From Eubacteriales bacterium (lineage in GTDB: Bacteria; Bacillota; Clostridia; Oscillospirales; CAG-272), in the NCBI GenBank assembly GCA_045593985.1, contig JAZNXR010000107.1, positions 1-55,230 of the forward strand: a stretch of DNA of 55,230 bases, given 5' to 3'. Made by a program: the position numbers and the translations under genes. Positions 2,964-34,050 of the stretch are shown here, in pieces. The notes below the pieces were generated by a model. That model made no database searches and was not told the origin of the DNA. It was given only the letters and a program-made list of their open reading frames with translations. Within the stretch, counting starts at the first letter, position 1. Each line of letters begins with the position of its first letter.

Positions 2964-3015
2964 ACTGTGGGTGTCTTTGGACACAATGTTTTTTAGTGCT
3001 ATTGGAGGATCAAAG

Positions 3016-4548: not shown

Positions 4549-4563
4549 AAAGGATAAAAAATC

Positions 4564-4794
4564 ATGGAAAAGCTTCTTGAAATTCTTACCGACCTTCACT
4601 CCGACGTTGACTTCGAGACCGAAACAAGCCTTATTGATGACGGAATCCTCGATTCTATGGACATCATCAGCCTTATCACCGAGATAAGCGACGAGTATGA
4701 CGTTACCATTACCGCAAAGGACATTATCCCTGCAAACTTCAACTCTGCGGCAGCGCTTTACGCACTTATAGAAAGACTTTCCGACGAGGACTGA
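4564..4794 (+). CDS. DltC-like acyl/aminoacyl carrier protein
   Basis: 76 aa, acidic. It has the phosphopantetheine-attachment motif GILDSMDIISL and lies directly downstream of the adenylase. Confidence 0.85.
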   Translation: MEKLLEILTDLHSDVDFETETSLIDDGILDSMDIISLITEISDEYDVTITAKDIIPANFNSAAALYALIERLSDED

Positions 4795-4802
4795 TTTAAC
4801 TA

Positions 4803-6395: not shown

Positions 6396-6410
6396 GAAAG
6401 ATTTTTAACT

Positions 6411-7484: not shown

Positions 7485-7485
7485 A

Positions 7486-9327: not shown

Positions 9328-9337
9328 GAGGTAAAAA

Positions 9338-10417: not shown

Positions 10418-10430
10418 TAGGAGATTTATT

Positions 10431-10952: not shown

Positions 10953-10985
10953 CAGATCAATATTACCCGGAAAGTGACAATAATT

Positions 10986-18704: not shown

Positions 18705-20954
18705 ATGGCAAATCTTGTAATAATCGAGTCACCCTTTAAGGCGCCGACGATAAAGAATTATCTCGGCTCAAATTACAGAGTTATTGCTTCAAGAGGTCAC
18801 CTCCGTGACCTTCCGAAAAGCTCGCTCGGCGTTGATATTGAAAATGGCTTTGAGGCTCATTATATCAATATCCGCGGCAAGGGTGATATTATAAAGGAGC
18901 TGAAAAAAGAGGCTAAAAATGCGACGAAGATCTACTTCGCAACGGACCCTGACCGTGAAGGTGAGGCAATAGCCTGGCATCTTGCAACCGTTCTCGGTAT
19001 TCCGATCGAAAAGACGAAAAGAATTACCTTCAACGAGCTTACCAAGACTGCGATCAAGAGTGCTATCAAGGAGCCTCGCAATATTGATATAGAGCTTGTA
19101 AATTCCCAGCAGGCAAGAAGAATTCTTGACAGAATCGTTGGCTATAAGCTTTCTCCATTCCTTTGGAAAACCGTTCGTTCCGGTCTTTCAGCAGGAAGAG
19201 TTCAGTCGGTTGCAACGAGAATCATCGTTGACCGTGAAAAGGAAATCGAGGCGTTTGTTCCGCAGGAATACTGGACTCTCGATGCGCTTCTCGAAACTGC
19301 CTCGGGCGCTGCTTTGACGGCTCATTACTATGGAAAGAACGGCAAAAAGTCGGAGCTTAAGAGCGAGGACGAGACCAAGGCTGTTCTTGATGCAATTTCG
19401 GGCTTGCCCTTTGTTGTTACGTCGGTTAAGAAGACTGTCAAGCAGAGAAATCCGCTTCCTCCCTTCACGACCTCAACAATGCAGCAGGAGGCCTCGAAAA
19501 AGCTTGGATTTAACTCACAGAAGATCATGAAGGTCGCGCAAGAGCTTTACGAGGGTATTAACGTCGGAAGTGCTAACGGCGGCGTTCAAGGTCTTATCAC
19601 CTATATGCGTACCGACTCGCTTCGTGTTTCGGACGAGGCCGCAAGCGGAGCGCTTGCATATATTGCCGAGAAGTACGGCGAAGCCTTCTGCCCCAAGACC
19701 AAGCGTGTTTACAAGACGAAGGCGGGCGCGCAGGATGCTCACGAGGCAATTCGTCCTTCAAATATTGCTCTTGAGCCTGAGCTTATTAAAAAATATCTTA
19801 CAAGCGATCAGTATAAGCTTTATAAGCTTATTTACAGCCGCTTCGTTGCTTCGCAGATGGCGTCTGCACAGATCGACACCGTTAATGCGGAGATGTCGGT
19901 TGGCGCATACAATTTCCGCGCATCCGGCTCGTCTGTCAAGTTCGCCGGATTTATGGCGGTTTATGACTATGTCGAGGAGGGCGAGGAGAGAAAGGGACTT
20001 CTTCCCGAAATCAAGGAAAACGATACCCTTAACTGCAAGTCTCTTAATCCTAACCAGCACTTTACCGAGCCGCCTGCTCGATTCAACGAAGGCTCGCTGA
20101 TCAAGTTCCTTGAGGAAAAGGGAATCGGCCGTCCTTCGACCTATGCTCCCATCGTTACTACGATAATTTCTCGCGGCTACGTTGGCAGAGAGGGCAAGTC
20201 GCTTAAGCCTACACAGCTCGGTATCGTTACCACCAAGCTTATGGTCGAGCATTTCCCCGACATCGTTGACTACGAATTTACCGCACAGATGGAGGATTCT
20301 CTCGACAGCATCGCCGGCGGTGACACCGATATGACGACGGTTCTTTCGAACTTCTACTGCGGCTTTAACGAGCATCTGACAAGAGCCGAGGCTACGGTTG
20401 AAAAGGAAGTTGTCGAGGTGCCTGTCGTTGAGACAGATATTATCTGTGATAAGTGCGGAGCGAGAATGATCGTCCGCCAGGGACGTTACGGCAAATTTGC
20501 CGCTTGTCCCAATTATCCCGAATGTAAGAGCACCAAGCCTATCGACAAGGACGGCAAGGAGCTTGTTAAGAAGGATACCGCAGAGAAGACCGATATGGTC
20601 TGCGAGCTTTGCGGCAAGGAGATGCTCAAGCGTAAGGGACGCTACGGCGAATTCTACGCTTGCTCCGATTATCCGAGATGTAAAAATACTAAGCCGATTC
20701 TCCGTCCTATCGGAGTTAAATGCCCCAAGTGCGGCGGAAATATCGTGCTTCGTAACGGTAAAAACAGAAGCGTTTATTATTCCTGCGAAAATTATCCCTC
20801 CTGCGATTTCAGCTCGTGGGATAAGCCGGTAAACGAGACCTGTCCCGATTGCGGTCAGCTTCTTTACTATAAGAAGGGTAAAAATCAGCTCGTTTGCGGG
20901 AATAAGGACTGCGGATTTAAGAAGGAAGCTTCCCCCGAAAATTATGAAAACTGA
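18705..20954 (+). CDS. topA: DNA topoisomerase I (type IA) with four C-terminal zinc ribbons
   Basis: TOPRIM N-terminus LVIIESPFKAPTIKNYLG...ATDPDREGEAIAWH. Active-site region ITYMRTDS. Four CxxC...C..C ribbons. Confidence 0.95.
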   Translation: MANLVIIESPFKAPTIKNYLGSNYRVIASRGHLRDLPKSSLGVDIENGFEAHYINIRGKGDIIKELKKEAKNATKIYFATDPDREGEAIAWHLATVLGIPIEKTKRITFNELTKTAIKSAIKEPRNIDIELVNSQQARRILDRIVGYKLSPFLWKTVRSGLSAGRVQSVATRIIVDREKEIEAFVPQEYWTLDALLETASGAALTAHYYGKNGKKSELKSEDETKAVLDAISGLPFVVTSVKKTVKQRNPLPPFTTSTMQQEASKKLGFNSQKIMKVAQELYEGINVGSANGGVQGLITYMRTDSLRVSDEAASGALAYIAEKYGEAFCPKTKRVYKTKAGAQDAHEAIRPSNIALEPELIKKYLTSDQYKLYKLIYSRFVASQMASAQIDTVNAEMSVGAYNFRASGSSVKFAGFMAVYDYVEEGEERKGLLPEIKENDTLNCKSLNPNQHFTEPPARFNEGSLIKFLEEKGIGRPSTYAPIVTTIISRGYVGREGKSLKPTQLGIVTTKLMVEHFPDIVDYEFTAQMEDSLDSIAGGDTDMTTVLSNFYCGFNEHLTRAEATVEKEVVEVPVVETDIICDKCGARMIVRQGRYGKFAACPNYPECKSTKPIDKDGKELVKKDTAEKTDMVCELCGKEMLKRKGRYGEFYACSDYPRCKNTKPILRPIGVKCPKCGGNIVLRNGKNRSVYYSCENYPSCDFSSWDKPVNETCPDCGQLLYYKKGKNQLVCGNKDCGFKKEASPENYEN

Positions 20955-22275
20955 CGTTATTCACGTTATAGGCGCCGGTCTTGCCGGCTCCGAGGCGGCG
21001 TATCAGGCGGCGAAGATGGGCGTTCAGGTCATTCTTCACGAGATGAAGCCGCATAAATATTCTCCCGCACATCACTACGATGGAATGGCGGAGCTTGTTT
21101 GCTCAAACTCGCTTCGTTCCCTTCAGCTGTCGAATGCGGTCGGGCTTCTTAAAGAGGAGCTTCGCATTCTCGGCTCGCTCATTATGGAGGCGGCTGATGC
21201 CACTGCCGTTCCTGCAGGTGCGGCGCTTGCGGTTGACAGATATAAATTCTCCGACTACGTGACCGAGAAGATTCGCTCGATGCCGAATATCACCGTTGTC
21301 GACGGCGAGGTGACCGAGCTTCCGAGCGACGGAATTACCGTCGTCGCAAGCGGGCCTCTTACCTCCGATGCGCTTGCAAAGCATCTTTCCGAGCTGCTTG
21401 GCGAAAGCTATCTCAGCTTCTTCGATGCGGCGGCACCGATAGTTGATGCTTCAACTATTGATATGAGCAAGGCGTATTTCGCATCACGCTACGGCAAGGG
21501 CGATCCTTGCTATATAAACTGTCCTATGGAAAAGGACGAGTACGATGCCTTTTACGAGGCACTTATTACGGCAGAGGAGGCCGCCCTTAAGGAATTTGAC
21601 CGTGAAAGCCAGAAGGGACTTACGGTTTTTGAGGGCTGTATGCCTGTTGAGGTCATGGCGAAAAGAGGACGTGAAACGCTTCTTTTCGGGCCGCTTAAGC
21701 CTGTTGGTCTTCCTTATCCCGGCACTGACCGTGATCCCTATGCGGTCGTTCAGCTTCGTCAGGAAAACAAGGAAAAGACGATGTATAATCTCGTCGGCTT
21801 CCAGACGCATCTGACCTTTGAGGCTCAAAGAAGGGTGTTCAGAATGATCCCGGGCCTACACAATGCGGAATTTCTTCGCTATGGGGTAATGCATAGGAAC
21901 ACCTATATAAATTCCCCCAAGCTTCTTAATCCCGATTATTCCCTTATCTCAAACGGAAATATTTATTTTGCGGGACAGATGACGGGTGTTGAGGGATATA
22001 TCGAATCCTGCTCGTCGGGATTCATTGCGGGCTTTAACGCCGCAAGAAAATTGAAGGGGCTTTCTCCCTTTACCCCGGATAACAGATGTGCTATCGGTGC
22101 GCTTGCGTCCTACATAAGCGACAGAAGCGTGACGAGCTTCCAGCCGATGAACGTCAATTTTGGTATAATCGCACCCCCGGATAAAAAAATCAAGGGCGGA
22201 AAGGCACTTCGCAACGAGTATCTTTCCCACCGAGCACTTTCCTATCTGAAGGAAATATATGAGAATTTGGAGTAA
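20944..22275 (+). CDS. trmFO: Methylenetetrahydrofolate--tRNA-(uracil-5-)-methyltransferase
   Basis: FAD motif VIGAGLAGSEAAYQ. Family-typical length. Position after topA, with an 11-nt overlap. Confidence 0.9.
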   Translation: MKTDVIHVIGAGLAGSEAAYQAAKMGVQVILHEMKPHKYSPAHHYDGMAELVCSNSLRSLQLSNAVGLLKEELRILGSLIMEAADATAVPAGAALAVDRYKFSDYVTEKIRSMPNITVVDGEVTELPSDGITVVASGPLTSDALAKHLSELLGESYLSFFDAAAPIVDASTIDMSKAYFASRYGKGDPCYINCPMEKDEYDAFYEALITAEEAALKEFDRESQKGLTVFEGCMPVEVMAKRGRETLLFGPLKPVGLPYPGTDRDPYAVVQLRQENKEKTMYNLVGFQTHLTFEAQRRVFRMIPGLHNAEFLRYGVMHRNTYINSPKLLNPDYSLISNGNIYFAGQMTGVEGYIESCSSGFIAGFNAARKLKGLSPFTPDNRCAIGALASYISDRSVTSFQPMNVNFGIIAPPDKKIKGGKALRNEYLSHRALSYLKEIYENLE

Positions 22276-22281
22276 TATGCT

Positions 22282-23298
22282 ATGAGAATTATCGTAGATA
22301 TTATGAGCGGAGATAAAGCGCCGCTCGAAATACTTATGGGCGCCCATGAGGCGGCAACCGAAAATCCCAATGTTGGATTTACATTTGTCGGTAACGAGGG
22401 AATCATGCGTGCAATTGCAGGCGTAAAGGATATTTCTCTTGATCTTCCGAATATCGAGATCGTTCATACTGACGGCGTTATTACTATGGAGGATCAGCCT
22501 CTTTCTGTTGTAAGAGAGAAGAAGGATTCCTCTATGGGAATCGGTCTTAAGCTTCTCTCCGAGGGCAAGGGCGATGCCTTCGTCAGCGCCGGTAATACGG
22601 GAGCGCTTCATGCGGGATCTACCCTTATTGTAAGAAGGATCAAGGGAATTCAGAAGTCGGGAATTGCGACGATCCTTCCTTACGAAAATCCCACGATGCT
22701 TATGGACAGCGGCGCGAATATTGAAATTCCCCCCGAAACCTACGTGCAGTTTGCGCAGATGGGAACGGTATATATGAGAGAGATACTCGGCGTATCCAAT
22801 CCCCGTGTAGGTCTATTGAACATTGGCGAGGAGAGAATCAAGGGAACGAAAACGGTTGCAGCTGCTTATGAGCTTCTTGAAAAGGCAGAGGGAATAAATT
22901 TCGTCGGTAATATTGAGGGCAAGGACGTTCCGAACGGAAAATGCGACGTTATCGTTTGCGACGGCTTCTCGGGAAATATCGTTCTGAAATTGAGCGAGGG
23001 ACTTTCAAAGTTCATCATCGGCAAGCTGACCGACGTATTTACCGCAAATCCTCTTACCAAGGTTTCCTATCTTGGAGTCAAGAAGGGACTTAAGGATATG
23101 AAAAAGAGCTTTGATGCATCGGAGTACGGCGGCGCGCCGCTTCTCGGCTTGGCGAAAACCGTTATAAAGGCACACGGAAGCTCTGACAGCTACGCCATCA
23201 AAAATGCCATTCGTCAGGCGCTTCAGTGCGTTGACAATGCAGTTGCTTACAAGATCGCAAAGCTCGTCGTGCCTGATATTATCCCGGAGGATAAGTGA
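22282..23298 (+). CDS. plsX: Phosphate acyltransferase PlsX
   Basis: MRIIVDIMSGDKAP N-terminus, FVSAGNTGA motif and 338-aa length. Confidence 0.92.
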   Translation: MRIIVDIMSGDKAPLEILMGAHEAATENPNVGFTFVGNEGIMRAIAGVKDISLDLPNIEIVHTDGVITMEDQPLSVVREKKDSSMGIGLKLLSEGKGDAFVSAGNTGALHAGSTLIVRRIKGIQKSGIATILPYENPTMLMDSGANIEIPPETYVQFAQMGTVYMREILGVSNPRVGLLNIGEERIKGTKTVAAAYELLEKAEGINFVGNIEGKDVPNGKCDVIVCDGFSGNIVLKLSEGLSKFIIGKLTDVFTANPLTKVSYLGVKKGLKDMKKSFDASEYGGAPLLGLAKTVIKAHGSSDSYAIKNAIRQALQCVDNAVAYKIAKLVVPDIIPEDK

Positions 23299-23305
23299 TT
23301 AGGAA

Positions 23306-24019
23306 ATGAACAAGCATTATCCTGCTCCCTTGGCGGAGCTTGAAAAGACGATCGGTTATACCTTTAAAAACCCGACGTATATTCTCGTTGCAACGACACA
23401 TTCGTCGTTTTCCAACGAGGCGAAGGACGGCGTAGACTGTAACGAGCGTCTTGAATTTCTCGGAGATTCGGTTTTGAGCTACATCACAAGCCGTTATCTT
23501 TACGAAAGCTTCCCCGGGCTTCCCGAGGGGGGAATGTCGAGAGTCAGAGCATCGGCGGTTTGCGAGAAGTCGCTTTGCGCTATTGCTAAAAGAATCGATC
23601 TCGGCGCATATTTGCGTCTCGGTCACGGCGAGGAATGTCAAGACGGTCGAAACCGCCCGTCAATTCTTGCCGACGCCTTTGAGGCGCTTCTTGCCGCTAT
23701 TTATCTTGACGGCGGAATTGAGCCTGTTCGTGCCTTTCTTTTACCGATAATCTCGGCGGAGATCGACGGAATAATCGAAAGCGGAGCAGACCTTGACTAT
23801 AAGACGGTGCTTCAGCAGTTTATTCAGCAGGAGCGAGGCTCGCTGCTTGAATACGTTACTGTCGGTGAAAGCGGCCCTGCACACAGAAAGACCTTTTTCG
23901 TTGAGGTTCGTCTTAACGGTAACGTGATCGGCCGCGGAAACGGCTCGTCAAAGCGTAAGGCTGAACAGAGCGCGGCGAAGGAAGCTCTTTCCCTCTTTGA
24001 CTTTGGTAAGCAGGGATGA
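23306..24019 (+). CDS. rnc: Ribonuclease III
   Basis: Signature NERLEFLGDSVL and a C-terminal dsRBD (GPAHRKTFFVEV...GSSKRKAEQSAAKEAL). Confidence 0.95.
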   Translation: MNKHYPAPLAELEKTIGYTFKNPTYILVATTHSSFSNEAKDGVDCNERLEFLGDSVLSYITSRYLYESFPGLPEGGMSRVRASAVCEKSLCAIAKRIDLGAYLRLGHGEECQDGRNRPSILADAFEALLAAIYLDGGIEPVRAFLLPIISAEIDGIIESGADLDYKTVLQQFIQQERGSLLEYVTVGESGPAHRKTFFVEVRLNGNVIGRGNGSSKRKAEQSAAKEALSLFDFGKQG

Positions 24020-25017
24020 GACATATAAATATCCCGATATTCATACCGCATCTCGGCTGCCCGAATGACTGTGCCTTTTGTAATCAGCGCAGTATTTCGG
24101 GCAGAACGCATTTTGATATATCGGACGTAAGAAAACAAATAGAGGATGCGCTCGAAACGTCGGGCGAAAGCGAGTGCGAAATTGCATTTTTTGGCGGCTC
24201 GTTTACCGGCATTGACCGTTCTCTTATGATCTCTCTCCTTGAAATTGCAGAGGAATTTGTGAAAGTGGGGAAGGTTACTTCAATTCGTCTCTCGACTCGC
24301 CCCGATTACATCAGCGAGGAGATTCTTGAAATTCTCGGCAGATACAGCGTTAAAACCATTGAGCTTGGTATTCAAAGCTGCTCTGATGCGGTTTTGACGA
24401 CGAGCAAGAGAGGTCATACCGTTCGTGATACGGTCAGCGCCTGTCGGCTTATCAAGGCGCGTGGATTTTCTCTTGTCGGGCAGATGATGATAGGACTTCC
24501 GACTTCAAGCGAGGCTGACGAAATTGAAACCGCTAAGATGATTTGTGAGCTTGGCGCAAGCGAGGCGAGAATTTATCCCATCGTTATTCTTAAGGGAACG
24601 CAGCTTGTTAAGATGGTGGAAAGCGGCGAATATGCGCCGCTGAACGAGGACGAGCTTATATCACGAAGCGCATCTGTGCTTTCGGTTTTTCGCGGCAACG
24701 GAGTTAAGGTGCTTCGCATCGGACTTCACTCGGGAACGGAGCTGAATTCGGGCGACGAGATTGCCTGCGGATATTATCACCCTGCGATGGGCGAGCTTGT
24801 CGAGGGCGAGCTTTATTTCAGGGAGCTTGAAAAAAGGCTTGCGGAGATGCCCTCGAAGCAGGACGGAATAACAGTTACCGTGCCGCGCGGTGAGCTTTCG
24901 AAGGCGATCGGTCAAAACGGCAGAAACCGTAGGCGTCTTATAGAAAAATTCGATTTGAAGGCTATTAAATTCAAGGAGGGCGACGTTGCCTCCCTTGAAA
25001 TTCAGGCTAATAAATAA
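24016..25017 (+). CDS. Elp3-like radical SAM protein (no SPASM extension)
   Basis: CPNDCAFCNQ (CxxxCxxC) lies 14 residues from the N-terminus. ATGA overlap with rnc. Confidence 0.8.
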   Translation: MRHINIPIFIPHLGCPNDCAFCNQRSISGRTHFDISDVRKQIEDALETSGESECEIAFFGGSFTGIDRSLMISLLEIAEEFVKVGKVTSIRLSTRPDYISEEILEILGRYSVKTIELGIQSCSDAVLTTSKRGHTVRDTVSACRLIKARGFSLVGQMMIGLPTSSEADEIETAKMICELGASEARIYPIVILKGTQLVKMVESGEYAPLNEDELISRSASVLSVFRGNGVKVLRIGLHSGTELNSGDEIACGYYHPAMGELVEGELYFRELEKRLAEMPSKQDGITVTVPRGELSKAIGQNGRNRRRLIEKFDLKAIKFKEGDVASLEIQANK

Positions 25018-25042
25018 CCCGATGCGATGCATCGGGTTTTTT
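25016..25042 (+). terminator. Rho-independent terminator
   Basis: ACCCGATGC-gat-GCATCGGGT stem, followed by TTTTTT. Confidence 0.85.
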
Positions 25043-25102
25043 TAAGACTGTAAATAATTCGGTTAGGCTTATTCGGATATTTTCACAATTTCATTTTTAC
25101 TA

Positions 25103-25131
25103 TTGTTTATTTTATTTTCCTGTGCTATAAT
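25103..25131 (+). promoter_or_regulatory. Promoter of the kinase/PqqD cassette (extended -10)
   Basis: TTGTTT (25103-25108), 17-nt spacer, TGcTATAAT (25123-25131). Confidence 0.5.
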
Positions 25132-25160
25132 ACGAATAGTAACATTAAAATGGTGGTATT

Positions 25161-25865
25161 ATGGAGTTTTGCCTGATGCTTGCGGGCGTTCCCGTCCGCA
25201 TTATACACAAATACGAGCATATCCGTGTCCTTTGCGAGGGGTATCTGACCGACAGCGAGCCGCGTTTTTCCGTTTCTGTGACTGACGAGGAAATCGAAAA
25301 AGAAAATGCGATAACGAACGGCGAATTCCCCCTTGCCATCTGTGAGGCAACCTGTATTCACCGTGCGGTAACCCGTGCGCTTGTAAAGCACGGAGTCATG
25401 CTGATACATTCTGCAGTTATTACCGTCGACGGCGAGGCGTTTGTCTTTATGGCGAAAAGCGGTGTCGGAAAGTCGACTCATATTCAGCTTTGGCAAAAGG
25501 TATTTGGTGACCGCGCGGTCGTGCTTAACGGAGATAAGCCGTATTTTACCTTTGAAAACGGGGCTTTGATGGCACACGGCACGCCTTGGAGAGGAAAGGA
25601 ATTTCTCGGGCAGAATATGAAGGCTCCCGTTAAGGGAATGTGCCTGCTTCACCGCGGATTGGAAAACGAAATTTCACTTGCAAGCTCGCATGATGCTGTT
25701 GGGCAGATATTCCATCAGGTGCTTCTGCCGCAGGACGGAGCCGATCTTGCTTCCTTTATGATGATGATGGACAAGATTATCAAAACGGTGCCGTTTTACA
25801 ACCTTTACTGTAACATGAATGACGACGCCGCGCGTGTCGCATATAACGGAATGAAGGGAAACTGA
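25161..25865 (+). CDS. HPr-kinase-like P-loop protein (HprK-related kinase family)
   Basis: The segment LIHSAVITVDGEAFVFMAKSGVGKSTHIQLW resembles the HprK C-terminal catalytic domain with its P-loop. 234 aa. Confidence 0.6.
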   Translation: MEFCLMLAGVPVRIIHKYEHIRVLCEGYLTDSEPRFSVSVTDEEIEKENAITNGEFPLAICEATCIHRAVTRALVKHGVMLIHSAVITVDGEAFVFMAKSGVGKSTHIQLWQKVFGDRAVVLNGDKPYFTFENGALMAHGTPWRGKEFLGQNMKAPVKGMCLLHRGLENEISLASSHDAVGQIFHQVLLPQDGADLASFMMMMDKIIKTVPFYNLYCNMNDDAARVAYNGMKGN

Positions 25866-25866
25866 C

Positions 25867-26133
25867 ATGAAGATTAAAGATGGATTTGTTTTACATTCGG
25901 TAGGCGACGAGAACGTCGTTGTTGCCATTGGAAAAATGACAACGCAGTTCAGAGGAATGATTCGCCTGAACTCCACGGGAGCGTTCATTTTCCGAGCTCT
26001 TGAAAAGGAAACCGACGAAAGAGCCGTGATCGATGCGCTTATCGCAGAATACGGTATTGACGAGGCAACCGCCACAACTGCCGCTACGACTTTTATTTCA
26101 CAGCTTAATGAAGCGGGTGTGCTTGATATATGA
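25867..26133 (+). CDS. PqqD-family protein (RiPP recognition element-like peptide chaperone)
   Basis: 88 aa. The pattern LNSTGAFIFRAL...AVIDALIAEYGID...FISQLNEAGVL is typical of PqqD. It starts 1 nt after the kinase stop codon. Confidence 0.7.
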   Translation: MKIKDGFVLHSVGDENVVVAIGKMTTQFRGMIRLNSTGAFIFRALEKETDERAVIDALIAEYGIDEATATTAATTFISQLNEAGVLDI

Positions 26134-26594
26134 CCGACAGTTTCGGCGTTGATGCTAAAAGAACGACCGTTGCCGACGAGCTTAAGGCGGGAAGAAGTGT
26201 CACCTTTTTTACCGTCGGATGCTCGATGCAGCCGCTTCTTTATGAGCGACAGACACACGTTATGCTCTCTCCGATAGAGGAGACTGTTAAGAAATACGAT
26301 ATCGTGCTGTATCGCCGTGCGGACGGAGTTCTCGTTTTGCACAGATGCGTTAAGGTGCTTGACGGCGCTTGTCTTACGCGAGGGGATAATACCTATTACC
26401 TTGAGCGGGTAGATATGCCGCAAATGCTGGGAGTTGTTACGCATATTTACCGAAAGGGTAAAATGATTGACGTAAAGAAAAGCCTCTCTTACCGTTTTTA
26501 CTCGGTTTTTTGGAATATGACCTATCATATTAGGCATTTTATTATCAGAGCGGGACGGAAAATTAGAAAATGGATGCGGAAACTAAAAAAATAA
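26130..26594 (+). CDS. S24/S26-family serine peptidase without an N-terminal membrane anchor
   Basis: Ser motif GCSMQPLL, candidate general-base Lys in HRCVKV, and GDN box TRGDNTYY. ATGA overlap with the PqqD gene. Confidence 0.65.
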   Translation: MTDSFGVDAKRTTVADELKAGRSVTFFTVGCSMQPLLYERQTHVMLSPIEETVKKYDIVLYRRADGVLVLHRCVKVLDGACLTRGDNTYYLERVDMPQMLGVVTHIYRKGKMIDVKKSLSYRFYSVFWNMTYHIRHFIIRAGRKIRKWMRKLKK

Positions 26595-27724
26595 ACGCCG
26601 CCTGCGATATGCTTCGGCTTTGCGCTTTGGCACTGACGGGGCGCGGCGGTGAAAAGGTTGACACAAGCACGCTTGCTCTTGCCGGCGTTTACCAAATCAG
26701 CGCCTATAATGGGCTTCTTGCCCTCGTTTGCGAGGGGCTTGATAGGCTTGGCGTTGAGAAAACAGAGGAAAACGCCCCTGTTTTAGAGGCGTTTGCTCAG
26801 GCTCGTGCTATGGCTATTCGCAAAAATATTTTGTTCGACACCGAGCGTATATCGATCATTTCCTTCCTTGAGGGAAACGGGATCTGGTATATGCCGCTTA
26901 AGGGTGCGGTCCTGAAGGATATGTATCCCAAGCTCGGACTTCGTCAAATGTCGGACAACGATATTTTGTTCGATGGCGAATACCGTGAGACGGTACACGA
27001 TTATTTCGTTTCACAGGGCTACACTGTTGATGAATATATGGAAGGCTTTCACGATGTTTATCAAAAGCAGCCCATATACAGCTATGAGATGCATATTGCC
27101 CTTTACGACAAAAAACGCCAAATCTTTTCAAAATATTACAAAAACGTCAAGGAGCGTCTTATAAAGGACGAGGATAACAGCTACGGCTACCACTTTACCG
27201 ATGAGGATTTTTATATCTTTCTTGTCCTGCACGCTCATAAGCATTTTGTCTATCACGAAAGCATGGGCGCAAGACATCTTGCCGATCTGTACGTTTATCT
27301 TTCGCAGAAAAAGCTCGATTTTGATTATATTGAAAGTGAGCTTAAAACGGTTGGCGCTTATAAATTCGAGGTTAGCTGCCGAGAGCTTGTTCATGAGGTT
27401 TTTGATAATATAGAGGACTTTGATTTTGACAAGCTTGAGCCGAAGAAAAGGAAGCTGCTTTACGACTTTTTGCTCAATGCATATCATTCGACGGGCAAAG
27501 GAAAGCTCGAAATGGGCATTAAGAAAAAGGGCAAATTCGGGTACATTATGAGCAGGATCTTCCCGGGCGTTGAGTTTATGCTGCACTATAAGCCGATCTT
27601 TGCCAAATGGTATCTTCTTCCGTTCGGGTGGATATACCGAGCATTTGACATTCTTTTTCACCGTCTCGGCAACGTGTCGAAGGAGATTAAAGAGGTTGCT
27701 AACTCTAAAAATAAAAAGAAATAA
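26570..27724 (+). CDS. Uncharacterised nucleotidyltransferase-family protein (PF14907-like)
   Basis: 384 aa. The assignment rests on overall resemblance to the family seen beside PqqD/HprK-like genes. 25-nt overlap with the peptidase gene. Needs HMM confirmation. Confidence 0.5.
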   Translation: MDAETKKINAACDMLRLCALALTGRGGEKVDTSTLALAGVYQISAYNGLLALVCEGLDRLGVEKTEENAPVLEAFAQARAMAIRKNILFDTERISIISFLEGNGIWYMPLKGAVLKDMYPKLGLRQMSDNDILFDGEYRETVHDYFVSQGYTVDEYMEGFHDVYQKQPIYSYEMHIALYDKKRQIFSKYYKNVKERLIKDEDNSYGYHFTDEDFYIFLVLHAHKHFVYHESMGARHLADLYVYLSQKKLDFDYIESELKTVGAYKFEVSCRELVHEVFDNIEDFDFDKLEPKKRKLLYDFLLNAYHSTGKGKLEMGIKKKGKFGYIMSRIFPGVEFMLHYKPIFAKWYLLPFGWIYRAFDILFHRLGNVSKEIKEVANSKNKKK

Positions 27725-27758
27725 AAAGAAGGAAAACCTTGGTTTTCCTTCTTTTTTT
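27724..27758. terminator. Bidirectional rho-independent terminator
   Basis: GAAGGAAAACC-tt-GGTTTTCCTTC stem flanked by an A-run and a T-run. Confidence 0.85.
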
Positions 27759-28695
27759 AATAGTGACCGCCTTCGGTCACCTCGTTTAAGAAATATTTAA
27801 GCTCGCGCCGGCAGGTTTCCTCGTCAATGACGTAGCTCATTCCGTGGAGAGCGTCCTTGATGCTGACAAGTCTGCTGTTTTCGGGGCGGGCGTTATAGGC
27901 TCGGACGCTCATTTCGTGAGGCACGAAATCGTCTGCCAGGCCGTGAACGTAGAGAATCGGCAGCTTGCTCTTTTTGACGGCGTTTTCGGTTGATTCATCC
28001 TTCAAGCCGAAGCCGCAGATAAGCTTTACTGTCGGGAGCATAAGATAAAGGAGCGGGAATTTCGGAATGTGCATATCTGCCTTTGCAACGTGAGTTACGA
28101 TATCCCAGGGAGATGTGAAGCCGCAGTCGGCAATAACTCCCTTGACGTTGTTCGGCAGATCAAGACCTGATGCCATCAAGACCGTTGTTGCGCCCATCGA
28201 GATGCCGTCGAGGATTATTTTTATATCGCTTCCGTAGGTTTCGATAAGATAATTACACCACGAAAGGGCATCGTAGCGCTCTTTGATTCCGAAGGTGATC
28301 CATTTTCCCTCGCTCTCGCCGTGGGCTCTCTGATCGACGCCAAGCACGTTATAGCCCAAGCTCATAAAGAAGGGCATAGCGCACATAAAGTCCTCACTTG
28401 TTGAGCGATAGCCGTGCATAGAGATTATGAATTTTTTGCTTTCTCCCTCTGCCCGATACAGCTTGCCTACGAGCTTCAGACCGTCGTACGAGACGATATT
28501 ATGCCTTTCAAAGGGCATTTTCTCAACTGTTTTTCTGCCATCCTCAATGCGCTCAAGGCAGTCGGGGCTATCCTTCATTACCTCGGTTATTTCATAAACC
28601 TTGCCGCCGCGCGAAAAGGTCTTTTTTGCAAAATAACTTGTGACCGATGCCGCAATTATCAGTATTGCGGCGATTATTATAATTATGATAACCAT
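27757..28695 (-). CDS. Membrane-anchored alpha/beta hydrolase
   Basis: N-terminal TM segment. Nucleophile elbow GISMGA. HGYRS and HG...D motifs typical of the S9/BAAT-like fold. Confidence 0.8.
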   Translation of the reverse strand: MVIIIIIIAAILIIAASVTSYFAKKTFSRGGKVYEITEVMKDSPDCLERIEDGRKTVEKMPFERHNIVSYDGLKLVGKLYRAEGESKKFIISMHGYRSTSEDFMCAMPFFMSLGYNVLGVDQRAHGESEGKWITFGIKERYDALSWCNYLIETYGSDIKIILDGISMGATTVLMASGLDLPNNVKGVIADCGFTSPWDIVTHVAKADMHIPKFPLLYLMLPTVKLICGFGLKDESTENAVKKSKLPILYVHGLADDFVPHEMSVRAYNARPENSRLVSIKDALHGMSYVIDEETCRRELKYFLNEVTEGGHY

Positions 28696-28795: not shown

Positions 28796-28827
28796 ATGGT
28801 TGAAAACAATTGTGCTTGAGGTATGAT

Positions 28828-29802
28828 ATGGATAACGCTACATATACCGAATTTGAATATGCGTATACGACCTGCAACTCGATAATTGACGAGGTGAAAA
28901 AGGTCGTTTCGGGTAAGGACCGTGAATGCAAGCTGCTTCTTTGCGCGCTCGTCGCAGGCGGTCACGTTCTTATCGAGGACGTTCCCGGTGTCGGCAAAAC
29001 AACTCTCGCGTCGGCCATCAGCCGTGCGGCGGGACTTGATTTCCGCCGTGCACAGTTTACGCCCGACGTTATGGCATCGGATATTACGGGATTTAATATG
29101 TATAACAAGAAGACCGAGAGCTTTGAGTTCCGTCACGGCCTTATTGATACCAATATTCTGCTCGCAGACGAGATCAACCGCGCGTCTCCAAAGACTCAGT
29201 CGAGCTTGCTTGAGGCTATGGAGGAGAAAACCGTGACGGTTGACGGTGTGACTTATGAGATCCCATCGCCGTTTATGGTTATTGCTACTCAGAATCCGAG
29301 CGGATACGTCGGAACATTTCCGCTTCCCGAGGCTCAGCTCGACCGTTTTGCTATAAGGATAACGATGGGCTATCCGTCACCCGAGGACGAGCTTGCGATT
29401 ATTATGAGAAGAAAAAGCTCCGATCCTATGTCGCTGATTTCGGCGGTGAGCGACCGTGACGGTATTTTAAGGGTTAAGGCGGCGTGTGAAAGCGTTTTCA
29501 TTTCCGATAAGGTCTCGGAATATATCGTTACGCTCGTCAGTGCGACGAGAAGCCGTCCCGAGCTTGCGCTCGGAGCGAGCCCCCGTGCCTCTCTTGCGCT
29601 TATGAGACTGTCACGCGCTCTTGCGCTTGTGTCGCACAGGGAATACGTTCTGCCTAAGGACGTAGCGGAGCTGTTTACAGACGTGCTTTCCCACAGAGTC
29701 GTGCTTTCGCGCGAGGCGAAGGTCAGCGGAGTGAGTGCGAAAAAGGTGCTTTCCGACATTTTGTCAAGCACGAAGGTGCCGTTTATTGATTCGGGAAAAT
29801 GA
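28828..29802 (+). CDS. MoxR-family AAA+ ATPase
   Basis: Walker A motif DVPGVGKTT. Walker B motif ILLADEINRASPKTQSSLLEAMEE. GAGGT SD lies 6 nt upstream of the ATG at 28828. Confidence 0.92.
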   Translation: MDNATYTEFEYAYTTCNSIIDEVKKVVSGKDRECKLLLCALVAGGHVLIEDVPGVGKTTLASAISRAAGLDFRRAQFTPDVMASDITGFNMYNKKTESFEFRHGLIDTNILLADEINRASPKTQSSLLEAMEEKTVTVDGVTYEIPSPFMVIATQNPSGYVGTFPLPEAQLDRFAIRITMGYPSPEDELAIIMRRKSSDPMSLISAVSDRDGILRVKAACESVFISDKVSEYIVTLVSATRSRPELALGASPRASLALMRLSRALALVSHREYVLPKDVAELFTDVLSHRVVLSREAKVSGVSAKKVLSDILSSTKVPFIDSGK

Positions 29803-31055
29803 AGAAGAAAGGCTTTAAACCCAAGCTGCCGATAGGTCTGTCGTGGGGCTTGGCTGTGTATGCGGCGGTGCTTGCGCTGCTTGTATTGCTGGCACAGATC
29901 TTTGCTGTTCCGTTTACGCACGCGCTTGTTCTGCTTTGTCTTATTATGCCGATACCGAGCATTTTGCTTTTGCTTATTGCGATGAATTTCGTCAGCGTGG
30001 GCGCAAGTGTCGGGGCTGCTACGGCGGTGAGAGGCGAAAGGGTGAGCGTTTGCGTTAATATTAAAAATCGCTCGGTCTTTCCGATATCTACCGTTGAGGT
30101 GATCTGCGCCGTACCCGATCAAAGCGGCGTGCGCGGTGTTTCGAGGCTGAAAAAGAGAATATCGCTGACACCGTTTGGAAGCGTTACCGTGTCTGCTACG
30201 CCGATAGTGCATCGGCGCGGTAGGTATGAGGTTGGCGTGAAAGAGATTCGGCTTTATGACCTTCTGCATCTTATAAAGATAAGAAAAAGGATCAAGGGCT
30301 CTTATACTCTTGCGGTGCTTCCGAAGCTTCTCGCGCGCGAGAGCAGTATTTCCTATGACGGAACCATTGACGAGGATCCGTCGGTTGCAGTCGACGTTTT
30401 TTCGTCGTACGATTACGGCGATGTTCGTGAATACCGTGTCGGAGACTCGATGAAAAGAATACACTGGAAGCTTTCGTCGAAAAGCGACGAGTTTCAGGTC
30501 AAAAAGAGCGTTGCACAAAGCGAGAGCTATATCTGTATCGTCTGCGACAGAGGTATTGACAAGTCGGCTTACCGCCTTTCGGAGGTTGATCTGAACGAGC
30601 TTGACGATAGAAACGTCGAGGAGGCGATGCTTGCCGTGAGCGAGATCTGTCGCCACGACGGAAACGGCTGTATTTCGGTACAGGCGGACGACGGAGGCGC
30701 ACTTCTTCTCAACTTCGGCGGCGTTACTGACGAGAGTGAGATGAGGTATTTGCTCAGCGCTCTTGAAAAGGGTGACGGCGCTGATATCGTGTCGCTTATT
30801 CCGGAGAATGCGACGAGTGTATATTATATTGTTTCTTATTTTTCACGCGAGCAAGCGAAGGGCGTTTTTGATGCATACAGAAGCTGTGCTTCGCAGGCGT
30901 TTAACGTGTGTATCCGCGACGTTGGCGCATTTATTCCCGAGGAAAAAAGGGAAGAGTATCGCGTTTCGCTTGATGCGTTCAGGACGCTGCTTGTCGAAAA
31001 CGGAATTTCATTCTTTACCGTAACGGAGGGAGGGGCAAGGAATGAAGAAGAATAA
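29799..31055 (+). CDS. DUF58-domain protein with an N-terminal membrane anchor
   Basis: DUF58 signature VREYRVGDSMKRIHWKLSSKSDEFQVKK. Two N-terminal TM segments. ATGA overlap with moxR. Confidence 0.85.
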   Translation: MKKKGFKPKLPIGLSWGLAVYAAVLALLVLLAQIFAVPFTHALVLLCLIMPIPSILLLLIAMNFVSVGASVGAATAVRGERVSVCVNIKNRSVFPISTVEVICAVPDQSGVRGVSRLKKRISLTPFGSVTVSATPIVHRRGRYEVGVKEIRLYDLLHLIKIRKRIKGSYTLAVLPKLLARESSISYDGTIDEDPSVAVDVFSSYDYGDVREYRVGDSMKRIHWKLSSKSDEFQVKKSVAQSESYICIVCDRGIDKSAYRLSEVDLNELDDRNVEEAMLAVSEICRHDGNGCISVQADDGGALLLNFGGVTDESEMRYLLSALEKGDGADIVSLIPENATSVYYIVSYFSREQAKGVFDAYRSCASQAFNVCIRDVGAFIPEEKREEYRVSLDAFRTLLVENGISFFTVTEGGARNEEE

Positions 31056-33645
31056 AGCTCCCAAGACCTCCCTTGAAATAAATGCGACATACGGGCAGAG
31101 CGCATACGGCACCGACAAGGTGCTTCACGCTGTGCTCAGGTATCTCATACTCCTGACCGCCGTCATCGGAATGGGCGCTTCGTGCAGCGAGATCCTTGGG
31201 ATGAAGCCCGAAGCTATGACGCTCATTCTTTCATCGGCGTATACCTTCACCGTATTTTATCTCCTTTTCAGGTCGCTTAAAGGATTGATTGCGGGAATAG
31301 CTTTTGGCGCAGTCGGTATGTTTACTGCGCTTATGGTTCTGCATCTTTCGTTAAAGCAGCTTTTTGTCGGCGGCTTTAACGGGATATTCAATTTGATACT
31401 TGATATAATCAGCAAACGCGGCTACAAGACCGTGCCTTACCTCGACACCGGCATTGTAACTGACTTCGGAATACTCGTTATTATCACTGCGCTTGCGGCA
31501 TTGACAGTCGGGATATCGTGCAGAAAGAGAACGAGGGTTATTCCTTACGCCGTTGTCGTGGCCATCCCGGCGATGATATTTATGCTGACAGGGGGAGAAG
31601 TCCAGCTTCGGTATTTTGCGCTCCCTGTTGCCGCCGCGTGCGCTATGGCGACAATGGAGCTTGCCGAGAGAGGCGTGAAGGGGGCATTCCGTTCTTCCTT
31701 TGTCGGATTCACCTCATTTGTTCTTGCGTCAATGCTTATGCTCACGCCGATGGTAAATACCGATCGGTCGATGAAGCAGATCGGGGCAGGCGAGATCATC
31801 AAGGACCTGATTCCCGATTATAACGTAAGCGAAGTACAACGAAGTGCTGTATTAAGACGACATACCTTTACGGGCAAGCATATTATGACGGTGCATAGCA
31901 ATGTCGCATCTCCGGTATATCTGCGAAACTGGGCAGGCGGCTTTTACGGAAACCAAAGCTGGTATTCGGTCGATTACGATTACGGATATCCCTTCGGCGA
32001 ATTTGCACGTTCTAAAGATTACTTTGAGCTTACGAAGAAGTTTATCGAGTTGGCGGAGCTGCTAGGATATGGCAAGGATCAGATTGGTATCGGGCTGACT
32101 GATATCAGCATAGTCCTTGACGTAAAACAAAAGAATCTTCCGCTTCCGAGCATGTCGGGACGGATCGGCGCGATATACGATGGCGACAAGACTTTTTATC
32201 CGTCGTATATATACGACGGAGTTTCGATGCTTGAGTCTGCGTGGAAGGGTGAGATACTGACGAGCGCGGCGGTTATCGACGATTACGATAACGAGCTCCT
32301 TTCCGATGTAATATACGGATTTTATGAGTATCTGTTCTACGGCACATATGGTATGACCCCAACGTCTGCCATAGGCAAGTACTTCGCTGGAACCTTAAAC
32401 AAATACGGAAACGGTAAGTACTTTCTGCTTGGGAGCAATCTTGCGAGTTTCGCAAATAGTGCGTACGGAGCTGACGTTAAAGATGCAGCAATAAACCGTG
32501 CTGTTGAGGAGATATTCGAAAACACCGATATTGAACAATATTTTCACGGAGTACTTTTGAGCCAAATAGATGCCGTCCATTTATATCGCGGCGTCGTTCA
32601 CAACGGATGTTACTATGTGTTGGATAATGAGGGAAAAGCGCACGCACTTGAAGTTGCAAAAATAGTTGCCGATTATCTTGCAGATGGGCGCAAGTACAGC
32701 ACCAATCCGAAATCAACGGGATTGAGTGTGACCGAGGAACTTCTTTTCGGTTCGAAAGAGGGCTACTGCGTGCAGTTTGCTACCGTCGGAACACTCATTA
32801 TGCGCCGCCTTGGTTTTTCTGCCAGATACGCAGAGGGATATATTGCGCAGGATTTCGAGGGCTCGAAGAGCAGTTATGCTTATGAGAGCAAGATAACCGA
32901 TCGCGAAGGTCACGCATGGTGCGAGGTCTGGATAGAAGGCTTCGGCTGGTTAACCTGTGAGATGACTCCGGGCTTTGGCGAATTAAACGTCGGCGGAACG
33001 ACTCCGCCGCCCGTTACAACGCCGCCCGAAACGAGCGATACGCCAATTACCACAACTCCCCCCGTGACGGGAACTACACCGTCCGAGACGACTGACAAGC
33101 CTATCGTGACTACACCGTCCGAGACCGAGAAGCCGATAATCGATACGACCGAGCCGAAATACGGCGACGGGGATAAGACGAATGATCTCGATCCTGTGCC
33201 GTTTGTAATCCTGGGCGTTGCGTTGATATTGCTCATCGCTTTTATATCGAGCGTAATTTCGACTGTAAATAAGAAGAAAAAGCGTCTCGACGCTTTGATA
33301 AGCCGCGCGCTTGCGGGAAATAACAACAGTGATGAGCGGCGTATTCTTGCGGAAGCGCTGAAGTCCGCACTTTCGGGTGCGCTTGGAGCTTACGGCGCAT
33401 TGCCGAAAGCAGGCGAGCTGCCTGAGGGCTATGCAAGCCGTCTTGAAGAAACGCTTCGTCTTGACGGGCTTGAGATTCCGATCTCGCTCTGCGTTTCCGC
33501 ACTTGTGAAGCAGGTCTACGGCTTCGGCATGGATGAAAATGACGTGAAGGTGTCGGCCTTTACCCTCCGTGCGCTTCGTGTCAATGCAAGGAAAAAGGTC
33601 GGCTTATTCAAGCTGATTATTTACAGGATCAAAGGAGTGCTTTAA
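31042..33645 (+). CDS. Polytopic transglutaminase-domain membrane protein
   Basis: Multi-TM N-terminus. TGase core EGYCVQFATVGTLIMRRLGFSARYAEGY...GHAWCEVW. T/P-rich linker, one more TM segment, and a C-terminal cytoplasmic tail. Confidence 0.85.
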   Translation: MKKNKAPKTSLEINATYGQSAYGTDKVLHAVLRYLILLTAVIGMGASCSEILGMKPEAMTLILSSAYTFTVFYLLFRSLKGLIAGIAFGAVGMFTALMVLHLSLKQLFVGGFNGIFNLILDIISKRGYKTVPYLDTGIVTDFGILVIITALAALTVGISCRKRTRVIPYAVVVAIPAMIFMLTGGEVQLRYFALPVAAACAMATMELAERGVKGAFRSSFVGFTSFVLASMLMLTPMVNTDRSMKQIGAGEIIKDLIPDYNVSEVQRSAVLRRHTFTGKHIMTVHSNVASPVYLRNWAGGFYGNQSWYSVDYDYGYPFGEFARSKDYFELTKKFIELAELLGYGKDQIGIGLTDISIVLDVKQKNLPLPSMSGRIGAIYDGDKTFYPSYIYDGVSMLESAWKGEILTSAAVIDDYDNELLSDVIYGFYEYLFYGTYGMTPTSAIGKYFAGTLNKYGNGKYFLLGSNLASFANSAYGADVKDAAINRAVEEIFENTDIEQYFHGVLLSQIDAVHLYRGVVHNGCYYVLDNEGKAHALEVAKIVADYLADGRKYSTNPKSTGLSVTEELLFGSKEGYCVQFATVGTLIMRRLGFSARYAEGYIAQDFEGSKSSYAYESKITDREGHAWCEVWIEGFGWLTCEMTPGFGELNVGGTTPPPVTTPPETSDTPITTTPPVTGTTPSETTDKPIVTTPSETEKPIIDTTEPKYGDGDKTNDLDPVPFVILGVALILLIAFISSVISTVNKKKKRLDALISRALAGNNNSDERRILAEALKSALSGALGAYGALPKAGELPEGYASRLEETLRLDGLEIPISLCVSALVKQVYGFGMDENDVKVSAFTLRALRVNARKKVGLFKLIIYRIKGVL

Positions 33646-33648
33646 AAT

Positions 33649-34050
33649 ATGTTTTTTGAAATAAAGGACGAAATGCTGCTCGGGGGAACGTCGCTTGCTT
33701 ATCTCGGCGATGCGGTTTTTGAGCTTATAACGAGGCAGTATCTCCTTTCGACGGGGGTTACTGACGTTGGTAAGCTGAACAAAATGGCGCTGTCATACGT
33801 CAAGGCGACCGCACAAAGCGATGCTGTTGAAAGGCTGCTTCCGCATTTGACGGAGGAGGAGGTTCAGATATACAAGCGAGGCAGAAATGCAAACGGAATT
33901 TCCATTCCGAAAAGCGCATCTGCTTCCCAGTATCGCCGTGCGACGGGGCTTGAAGCGCTCTTCGCTCACCTCTACGCGCAGGGTAAAAAGGAACGTCTCC
34001 GCGAGCTGTTTGTGATCGGATTTGTAAAAGGAGCCGAAAACGATGTATAA
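33649..34050 (+). CDS. mrnC: Mini-ribonuclease III
   Basis: 133 aa with the signature LAYLGDAVFELITRQYL and a C-terminal EALFAHLY region. Confidence 0.8.
   Translation: MFFEIKDEMLLGGTSLAYLGDAVFELITRQYLLSTGVTDVGKLNKMALSYVKATAQSDAVERLLPHLTEEEVQIYKRGRNANGISIPKSASASQYRRATGLEALFAHLYAQGKKERLRELFVIGFVKGAENDV

Follow-up and report, generated by a model that had tools for sequence, protein, structure and literature searches.

A clostridial four-gene operon that probably matures linear polyphosphorylated peptide-type RiPPs encoded outside its own locus

What might a self-contained set of peptide-modifying enzymes act on when no peptide gene lies beside it? The question is posed by a cassette of four tightly coupled open reading frames (ORFs) at 25161-27724 on the forward strand of contig JAZNXR010000107.1 of a Eubacteriales bacterium, a 55-kb stretch (55,230 nucleotides) that was analyzed as a whole and is called the window here. 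A sequence-only reading of this DNA had described a kinase, a PqqD-type protein, a signal-peptidase-like protein, and a nucleotidyltransferase without a visible substrate gene, and had suggested that the cassette either tailors and cleaves a peptide encoded elsewhere or does something not yet described. Our results fit the first suggestion: the cassette is probably a clostridial operon for the maturation of ribosomally synthesized and posttranslationally modified peptides (RiPPs) of the linear polyphosphorylated peptide (LPP) type, with its own promoter, acting on peptides encoded outside the window. The second suggestion loses its ground, since the gene set already defines the LPP family (PMC13381572).

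LPPs are RiPPs described by Popov et al. (Nat Commun 2026;17:6633; PMC13381572), with the genes lppA-K-B-S-D-N in Paenibacillus alginolyticus DSM5050 and clusters also in other Bacillota, essentially Bacilli. Their core comprises LppA, the HprK-like kinase LppK, the PqqD-type RiPP recognition element (RRE) LppB, LppS, which resembles signal peptidase I (SpI), the MsbA-like LppD, and the NTP_transf_5 protein LppN, with no cyclase (PMC13381572). In the window, ORF1 (25161-25865; 234 aa) encodes an LppK-like P-loop kinase with an HprK/PEPCK fold and is separated by a 1-nt gap from ORF2 (25867-26133; 88 aa), an LppB-like discrete RRE of the PqqD family. ORF2 shares an ATGA overlap with ORF3 (26130-26594; 154 aa), an LppS-like, anchor-less homolog of archaeal and endoplasmic reticulum (ER)-type SpI, and ORF3 overlaps by 25 nt with ORF4 (26570-27724; 384 aa), an LppN/PsmN-like NTP_transf_5 nucleotidyltransferase; all four lie on the forward strand, and the tight coupling read earlier was confirmed on the sequence. 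The domain table of the LPP study uses TIGR04249, PqqD, TIGR02228, and NTP_transf_5 (PMC13381572). These are the models that match the window proteins, which are of the same families and in the same order: kinase, RRE, peptidase, and nucleotidyltransferase (K-B-S-N). The cassette shares four of the five LPP core enzyme families as short, separate proteins, and both systems have an anchor-less archaeal-type SpI with Ser and His, a discrete PqqD RRE with a conserved Asn, and no cyclase. Among the features that mark LPP clusters, the window holds the SpI-like peptidase, the adjacent PqqD RRE, the HprK-like kinase, and NTP_transf_5, and lacks a macrolactam cyclase; an MsbA-like exporter and YxxP-leader precursor genes were not found in it. 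MsbA-type or ABC exporters are present in two related loci (L005 and L019).

The assignment of ORF1 as an HprK-like kinase is upheld by its predicted fold, its profile matches being weak. The best NCBIfam scores were 19 bits for ScmC (TIGR04249), 18 for HprK_rel_A (TIGR04352), and 13 for HprK_rel_B, the first two with E values of about 1e-3; in precomputed annotation, ORF1 and all listed homologs except P0172 carry the Pfam family ScmC (PF27840). The AlphaFold model (35 homologs; predicted local distance difference test [pLDDT], 93.4) matched PEPCK and HprK/P folds in Foldseek searches (E 2e-6 to 1e-5). In the alignment of homologs, the P-loop (AKSGVGKST; residues 98 to 106) and about 30 further residues were invariant. 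BLASTP aligned ORF1 with LppK, whose sequence was taken from a machine-read figure and is approximate, collinearly over the full length at 22% identity (E 1e-9). The ratio of nonsynonymous to synonymous substitution rates (dN/dS) for ORF1 was about 0.1, and PDB sequence searches with ORF1 and ORF4 returned P-loop noise or nothing. The earlier reading had linked the kinase, PqqD protein, and nucleotidyltransferase to the HPr-rel-A system of TIGRFAMs, and membership in that system or in the SynChlorMet (SCM) system would agree with the weak matches to TIGR04352, TIGR04353, and TIGR04249 and with the Pfam name of ORF1. The scores, however, stay far below the cut-offs of the HPr-rel-A equivalogs (TIGR04352, 18.2 versus 200 bits; TIGR04353, 19.9 versus 35) and of SCM (TIGR04249, 19 versus 125 bits), and no SPASM radical SAM partner was found in the window. 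The adjacent radical SAM gene is of the ELP3/MnmL type, lies behind a terminator, and is missing 5' of the cassette in every related locus. On these sub-cut-off scores, membership in both systems is ruled out, and we leave it only a trace of probability.

Profile matches for two of the other proteins were well over their Pfam cut-offs, bearing out the view of ORF2 as a PqqD-type protein of 88 aa (PF05402, 56 bits versus 23; E 4.6e-15) and of ORF4 as a PF14907 nucleotidyltransferase (136 bits versus 31; E 1.9e-39); for the kinase and the peptidase, the weak matches are backed by fold models. In ORF4, the DxD motif (D129/D131) and other motifs are invariant in an alignment with nine homologs and LppN. 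These families also invite comparison with lasso peptide clusters of the paeninodin/pseudomycoidin type (PadeK/PsmK, B1, B2, PsmN, C, D), which likewise have an HprK-like kinase, a PqqD protein (B1), and an NTP_transf_5 protein; in these clusters the kinase phosphorylates a Ser of the precursor, and PsmN, which carries a DxD motif, adds a hexose to the phosphate. The cassette might then be a fragment or accessory of such a cluster, its kinase, B1, and nucleotidyltransferase serving a cyclase encoded elsewhere: this trio is typical of Firmicutes lasso clusters, the best NCBIfam matches of ORF2 are lasso PqqD models, an Asn synthase gene is present at 7486-9327, and about one-third of LPP clusters adjoin lasso clusters (PMC13381572). 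Such an origin is nevertheless very improbable. The lasso PqqD models scored below cut-off (35 versus 70 and 25 versus 80), and neither a cyclase nor B2 was found in the cassette or in 20+ related loci. Lasso clusters combine a cyclase with the Cys protease B2, whereas the cassette has no cyclase and a serine SpI as its leader protease; the lasso phosphorylation site is a C-terminal Ser, whereas the likely site here lies beside the leader junction. The Asn synthase, considered as a lasso cyclase, passed TIGR01536 (438 versus 267) but failed NF033535 (225 versus 525); it is of the AsnB type and part of an envelope cluster with Dlt-like genes that lies behind housekeeping genes at a distance of 16 kb. 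Transglutaminase-like proteins at 9338-10417 and 31042-33645 were likewise considered as B2 and rejected; the 867-aa Transglut_core protein is one member of a conserved triad with MoxR and DUF58 proteins. Nor did homologous cassettes always prove to be pieces of a lasso or sactipeptide cluster: no cyclase or radical SAM gene was found in any related locus.

ORF3, the peptidase, had no Pfam match, and its best NCBIfam match, TIGR02228 (archaeal signal peptidase I), scored 18.6 against a cut-off of 51.85 (E 1.3e-3). Its model (pLDDT 78) matched Streptococcus pyogenes SipA, LexA C-terminal domains, and SpsB, that is, the S24/S26 clan SF fold; a hydrophobic or transmembrane (TM) anchor segment was sought in ORF3, and none was found. 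In 12 homologs, G30, S32, M33, P35, H71, R72, R84, G85, D86, and E92 are invariant, while K75 is replaced by Gln or Glu in two homologs. As S32 and H71 are invariant and K75 varies, ORF3 belongs with the Ser-His peptidases (ER/archaeal, SipW-like) rather than the Ser-Lys type; S32, H71 (of LHRC), and the acidic D86 or E92 are its predicted catalytic residues. The earlier description of signal-peptidase-like boxes without a TM segment thus stands for the Ser, the fold, and the missing anchor and falls for the Lys general base, the conserved residue being His71, not Lys75. ORF3 is 28% identical to LppS (BLASTP E 4e-10); the counterparts of S32 and H71 in LppS are S29 and H68, and D93 of LppS, six positions past the GD box, corresponds to the invariant Glu92 of the ORF3 family. 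Although the peptidase had been singled out as the unusual fourth partner, an archaeal-type signal peptidase homolog is the leader peptidase of the LPP system (PMC13381572).

A housekeeping role for ORF3 as a SipW-type SpI was considered and finds no support, as it has no N-terminal anchor and its scores are low (NF046067, 13 versus 190; TIGR02228, as above). With SipW of Bacillus subtilis, Sec11 (MEROPS S26B), and SipA, it shares the clan SF fold, the GxSMxP, HR, and GDN boxes, and the Ser-His mechanism; unlike them, it has no TM anchor, is only about 150 aa long, ends in a long basic helix, and is encoded beside an RRE gene. It is predicted to be cytoplasmic and to act on an RRE-presented peptide, not on Sec substrates. 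Its closest catalogued relatives, also from Clostridia and with the same adjacency, are the pairs in cluster 9 of the sequence similarity network (SSN) of the LPP study (SCH01704.1/SCH01659.1 from an uncultured Ruminococcus; CDA64014.1 from Firmicutes CAG:56). ORF3 is 37% identical to the Ruminococcus SpI SCH01704.1 (E 2e-26), and ORF2 is 36% identical to SCH01659.1, the RRE beside it in Supp. Data 1 of Popov et al. (E 2e-18), both alignments covering nearly all of the proteins' length. The RREs of this cluster were filed as "RRE others," with precursors "not determined," and were not analyzed further (Supp. Data 1, PMC13381572). In our searches, the short SpI-like family amounted to 2,578 clusters at 50% identity (E ≤ 1e-10). 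In three proteins (P0250, 553 aa; P0294, 727 aa; P0319, 684 aa), the short SpI-like peptidase forms the N-terminal domain of a longer polypeptide; these may be transporter fusions, comparable to a 743-aa Bacteroidales protein in Supp. Data 1 of Popov et al.

How widely the genes travel together was assessed in about 30 related loci, all from metagenome-assembled genomes and metagenomes of gut and rumen Clostridia. They came from word-based searches, from looking up contigs, and from one scan of the genome collection with a peptidase profile, which contributed nine loci; a metagenome scan with a narrower precursor alignment yielded four short contigs, and gene content was tabulated by tblastn. 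Eight further loci of the window clade (L006, L011-L017), each from its own assembly, have the K-B-S-N arrangement at 64 to 89% amino acid identity. L001 and L018 (60 to 79%) have K-B-S only, as does L029 (44% for the kinase), and L019, from Faecalimonas (31 to 40%), has K-B-S and an ABC exporter. A distant clade (L003/4, L005, L007, L008-10; 50 to 58% for the peptidase) has K-B-S, a single-pass coiled-coil protein, and the nucleotidyltransferase, with an MsbA-type exporter in L005. The ScmC-PqqD-peptidase genes stay together from 100% down to 44% ORF1 identity (L029), and the nucleotidyltransferase is kept in most related loci and absent from L001/L018, L019, and L029. This gene content defines a conserved core of kinase, RRE, and peptidase; since the nucleotidyltransferase is absent from L001, the core system can do without ORF4. 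In comparisons with nine relatives, some of them likewise loci without a precursor, dN/dS was 0.03 to 0.19 for all four genes, values that are approximate because dS is saturated (1 to 2.9), yet well below 1; the sequence comparisons indicate that all four genes are under purifying selection.

Variation around the core was observed at several of these loci. At L001:10592-11731, beside K-B-S, a divergent gene for a 379-aa HTH/TPR regulator takes the place of the nucleotidyltransferase gene. Distant clusters have, between the peptidase and nucleotidyltransferase genes, a gene for a protein of 320 to 333 aa that has coiled coils and a single TM segment at its N terminus but matches no family (L005:10452-11417, L003:6336-7337, L007:2107-3072, L008:4268-5233, and L028:10979-11941), an addition that sets some relatives apart from LPP clusters and is absent from the window clade. 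At L003:5680-6324, between the peptidase gene and the gene for the 333-aa protein, a 214-aa lipoprotein-like protein consists almost wholly of TEPPV repeats (Extensin-like match).

Candidate substrates come from these relatives. In the distant clade, an ORF of 39 to 44 aa precedes the kinase gene, with the common pattern M-x-K-x-F-E-M-P-x-x-x-V-V/I-L/V-F-x-N-E-D-V-I-T-x-S followed by a variable tail; MEKNFEMPTLTMVVFENEDVITSSGLDFALGSFAFPGFNPFGE is an example of a precursor from a relative. A profile search retrieved 102 clusters (90% identity) of such peptides, all unnamed and 32 to 62 aa long, with the leader F-E-M-P…F-E-N-E-D-V-I-T-x-S. Among the 95 peptides that match the motif, the aromatic position is Phe in 89 and the Thr is kept in 92; the Ser is present in all 95, the pattern itself requiring it, and is invariant in an alignment of nine peptides (A2). 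The cores, of 10 to 37 residues, are rich in Gly, Phe, Pro, and Asn, and the C terminus is NPFGE or a close variant in 66 of 95. As in LPP precursors, a [Y/F]xxPx[L/V] leader and a Thr/Ser junction go together with cores that are hypervariable. A GGAGG-type Shine-Dalgarno sequence precedes each peptide gene, and a strong terminator follows it. Seven loci (L003, L005, L008, L013, L014, L016, and L017) carry peptide genes in cis, in the cluster or within a few kilobases: directly 5' of the cassette promoter, with a terminator of their own, in L013 and L014, and 3 to 4 kb downstream of the cassette in L014, L016, and L017. Two loci have two precursor genes each, with near-identical leaders and cores in L014 (1-138 and 7507-7644) and quite different cores in L005 (8909-9031 and 11592-11717), where one copy lies inside the cluster between the genes for the 321-aa protein and the nucleotidyltransferase.

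The peptide genes also have a second, more regular neighbor. In 13 of 15 assessable places (L003, L008, L014, L016, L017, L020, L021, L022, L023, L026, L028, L031, and L032), the peptide gene starts 10 to 60 nt past the stop codon of a large gene encoding 782 to 2,201 aa; such stretches include L003:255-4184, L008:2-2787, L014:3513-7644, L016:11987-15135, L017:12218-14838, L020:6061-10132, L021:3379-10126, L023:7604-10102, and L028:1070-6793, as well as those in L031 and L032. Where the N terminus is on the contig, the large proteins usually have a signal-peptide-like start. They are otherwise dissimilar (GH2, CBM35/CBM6, DUF285/LRR, DUF6528, Cys-repeat), yet a C-terminal domain of about 100 aa (…YSY…ALYxYxxA…), for which there is no Pfam model, recurs in 12 of the 13. 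Clostridial precursors are dispersed and trail genes for large secreted proteins, whereas LPP precursors lie in capsule loci, and often there is no cassette within 10 kb of the peptide gene. Assembly JAZQGR01 has the cassette on contig 53 (L012) and a precursor on contig 58 (L020), where 35 kb or more separate the precursor from each end of the contig; this arrangement within one assembly is direct precedent for action of the enzymes in trans. The LPP table likewise includes cases of a "precursor elsewhere in the genome," and many gains and losses of the system have been inferred (PMC13381572).

Within the window itself, a precursor was sought by regular expression, by tblastn, and with a 102-member profile hidden Markov model run at maximum sensitivity on all stop-to-stop ORFs (best E 6.3), and none was found. 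The statement that no substrate gene is visible is therefore correct for the window, as is the absence of a cyclase, a SPASM radical SAM enzyme, an exporter, and a precursor between the terminators. A SPASM enzyme or lasso cyclase was not found anywhere in the 55 kb, nor was a large protein with the C-terminal domain of about 100 aa, and no ABC_membrane protein turned up in a scan of 40 window ORFs, which covered the cassette, the radical SAM gene, and 35 others but not trmFO, plsX, and rnc. One weak tblastn match to a precursor, at 3370-3432, lies in frame inside a 537-aa adenylation enzyme and was put down to chance. The only candidate substrate in the earlier reading, an 8-codon upstream ORF at 25150, is to be discarded: half of the 10 species compared have ACG in place of its ATG, and the ORF runs over the Shine-Dalgarno sequence.

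The empty surroundings could mean that the cassette is an orphan remnant, an LPP-like cluster that has lost its precursor and exporter and has no substrate left in the organism. This is the main rival to maturation in trans. It draws on the precursor, exporter, and partner genes not found in the window, on the syntenic L013, which keeps its precursor just 5' of the same promoter where the window has 120 nt between the upstream terminator and the kinase start, and on the variable gene content among relatives together with the many inferred LPP gains and losses (PMC13381572). It is hard to reconcile with four ORFs intact in at least nine species at the low dN/dS values given above, with the invariant promoter and Shine-Dalgarno sequence, or with the unlinked precursor documented in a close relative, and we regard it as distinctly improbable, though the least so of the rivals.

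The RRE offers a link between the cassette and the peptides. Asn35 of ORF2 aligns with N33 of LppB, which fixes the Pro kink of the leader, and Ala72 stands at the position of LppB D70, which hydrogen-bonds the leader Tyr (PMC13381572). Ala occupies this position not only in the window RRE but in all related RREs with a nearby peptide that carries Phe or Leu in place of that Tyr; it is Asp in the RRE of L019 (L019:9742-10002), whose peptide reads YEHP (L019:344-493), and in the published LPP RREs, and the SSN cluster 9 RRE also keeps Asp. Such covariation of Asp to Ala with Tyr to Phe is, in this small sample, the pattern expected if FxxP peptides are the cognate substrates, and FxxP may represent a third class of specificity, in addition to the YxxP and WxxP classes already published. 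A different substrate, such as the N or C terminus of a full-length protein or another class of peptide, with an incidental association of the FEMP peptides, would accord with LPP precursors of up to 200 aa (PMC13381572) and with peptides whose link to large secreted proteins is more consistent than their link to the cassette. We consider this improbable, and somewhat more so than a remnant, as peptides occur in or within a few kilobases of the cluster in seven loci, their leader has the [Y/F]xxPx[L/V] RRE motif with an LPP-like Thr/Ser junction, and the Asp-to-Ala change in the RRE tracks the Tyr-to-Phe change in the leader.

Several observations weigh against maturation of LPP-type peptides in trans. 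Precursor, exporter, and large-protein genes were not found in the window, which leaves a substrate in this genome unproven. All four window proteins score below curated NCBIfam cut-offs, and pairwise similarity is marginal between ORF2 and LppB (E 0.02) and barely detectable between ORF4 and LppN (E 0.09 to 0.56); LppN was, moreover, inactive in the published experiments (PMC13381572). The set of four genes is not obligatory, with ORF4 lacking in L001/L018 and the peptidase in L028. The published leader, YxxPxVLxHQxIxFETxxS, differs from the clostridial FxxP…FENEDVITxS, in which the Ser would be at +2 and not +3 if cleavage follows the Thr. The covariation contains a single Tyr-type case with a known peptide (L019), and the saturation of dS tempers the estimates of selection. 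The window also departs from LPP clusters in its 22 to 28% identity to LppK and LppS, in having neither lppA nor the MsbA-type lppD in cis, and in its host range, gut and rumen Clostridia as opposed to Bacilli.

The published LPP system provides a model for how the cassette would work. There, LppB presents the YxxP-leader peptide, and Ser+3, beside the cleavage site, receives as many as four phosphates from LppK; LppS, which requires LppB, cleaves behind Thr-1, is inactivated by S29A, H68A, or D93A, and cuts unphosphorylated precursor poorly; precursors are encoded by one to three genes per cluster (PMC13381572). By analogy, the same mode of action in trans on FxxP-leader peptides is the most likely one for the window, and we infer that such peptides are encoded elsewhere in this genome. 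By homology to the P. alginolyticus lpp system, the ORF2 RRE would bind the N-terminal FxxP-x-L/V leader of a 30- to 60-aa precursor as an added β-strand, and the ORF1 kinase would place at least one phosphate on the invariant Ser two residues past the invariant Thr (…E-D-V-I-T-x-S…). ORF3, requiring the complex of RRE and leader, would cut at the junction, probably after the Thr, and free a short, mildly acidic core rich in Gly, Phe, Pro, and Asn. The alternative of treating T-x-S as a classical -3/-1 site with cleavage after the Ser was dropped because the LppS cut follows a conserved Thr and has Phe at -3. Like PsmN in pseudomycoidin, ORF4 may attach something more to the phosphate, for example a hexose, and export would need an unlinked transporter.

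The cassette appears equipped for independent expression. A promoter-like element at 25103-25131 (+) consists of a -35 sequence TTGTTT (25103-25108), a 17-nt spacer, and an extended -10 sequence TGcTATAAT (25123-25131); a generic scan overlooked it because the -35 hexamer matches at only 3 of 6 positions. In an alignment of the upstream regions of 10 species (A4), TTG, TGTGnTATAAT, and the GGTGG Shine-Dalgarno sequence show no variation, unlike the remainder of the spacer and the intergenic DNA around these elements, in support of the promoter proposed earlier; the Shine-Dalgarno sequence of the kinase gene lies at 25152-25156 (+; GGTGGTAnTATGGA, invariant in A4). The strong bracketing terminators proposed with it also fold stably (z about -4.3 to -5.5). 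The upstream intrinsic terminator (25016-25045, +) has a hairpin at 25016-25038 with a 10-bp stem including 6 GC pairs (-15.7 kcal/mol; z about -5.3), followed by a T-run; it is the terminator of the upstream radical SAM gene and insulates the cassette on its 5' side. The downstream intrinsic terminator (27723-27756) folds on the forward (-17.1 kcal/mol; z -4.3) and reverse (-18.9 kcal/mol; z -5.5) strands and is therefore bidirectional, being shared with a convergent α/β-hydrolase gene (27757-28695, -).

Upstream of the cassette lie trmFO, plsX, and rnc (20944-24019; identified by translation alone) and then the radical SAM gene (24016-25017). The latter was examined as a RiPP maturase and rejected, being an ELP3/MnmL-type enzyme with a KH domain that follows rnc/plsX, sits behind the terminator, and is not syntenic in relatives. 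Downstream, the α/β-hydrolase gene is followed by the conserved stretch at 28810-34050, seen also in L001 and L006, and by a GH2 enzyme. This stretch comprises the triad of a MoxR AAA+ protein, a DUF58 protein, and the 867-aa transglutaminase-core protein, and then a 133-aa protein consisting only of an RNase III domain; it is syntenic 3' of the cassette in several species. Farther off, 2935-11555 encodes a DltA-like adenylation enzyme, a DltB-like MBOAT protein, a 357-aa protein, an AsnB-type glutamine amidotransferase, a transglutaminase-like protein that also has an Ig domain of the surface type, and two further small proteins; it looks like a cell envelope modification locus unrelated to the cassette, about 16 kb away.

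These findings extend the LPP system to abundant gut and rumen Clostridia and to a short SpI-like family far larger than the published set. Beyond the publication, they add the clostridial lineage, the extent of the family, the FxxP leader together with the corresponding change in the RRE, the separation of the enzymes from their substrates, and the coupling of substrate genes to genes for large secreted proteins with an uncatalogued domain. In annotation, the four cassette proteins and the peptide family all currently stand as "hypothetical." More tentatively, and as a possibility that we would not bet on, a single "service" operon in gut and rumen Clostridia may mature dispersed FxxP peptides, each coupled to a large secreted protein with the shared domain, so that the phosphopeptide works with that protein. 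The peptide gene would then be translationally coupled to, and co-terminated with, the gene for its large secreted partner, a carbohydrate-active or surface protein, and the phosphorylated, possibly glycosylated peptide could be, for example, a ligand, an anchor, or a maturation partner of the C-terminal domain. The final product and biological role of LPPs are unknown (PMC13381572); if true, this reading would be the first functional clue for LPP-type RiPPs, and the link of the peptides to secreted glycan-active or surface proteins could guide work on their role.

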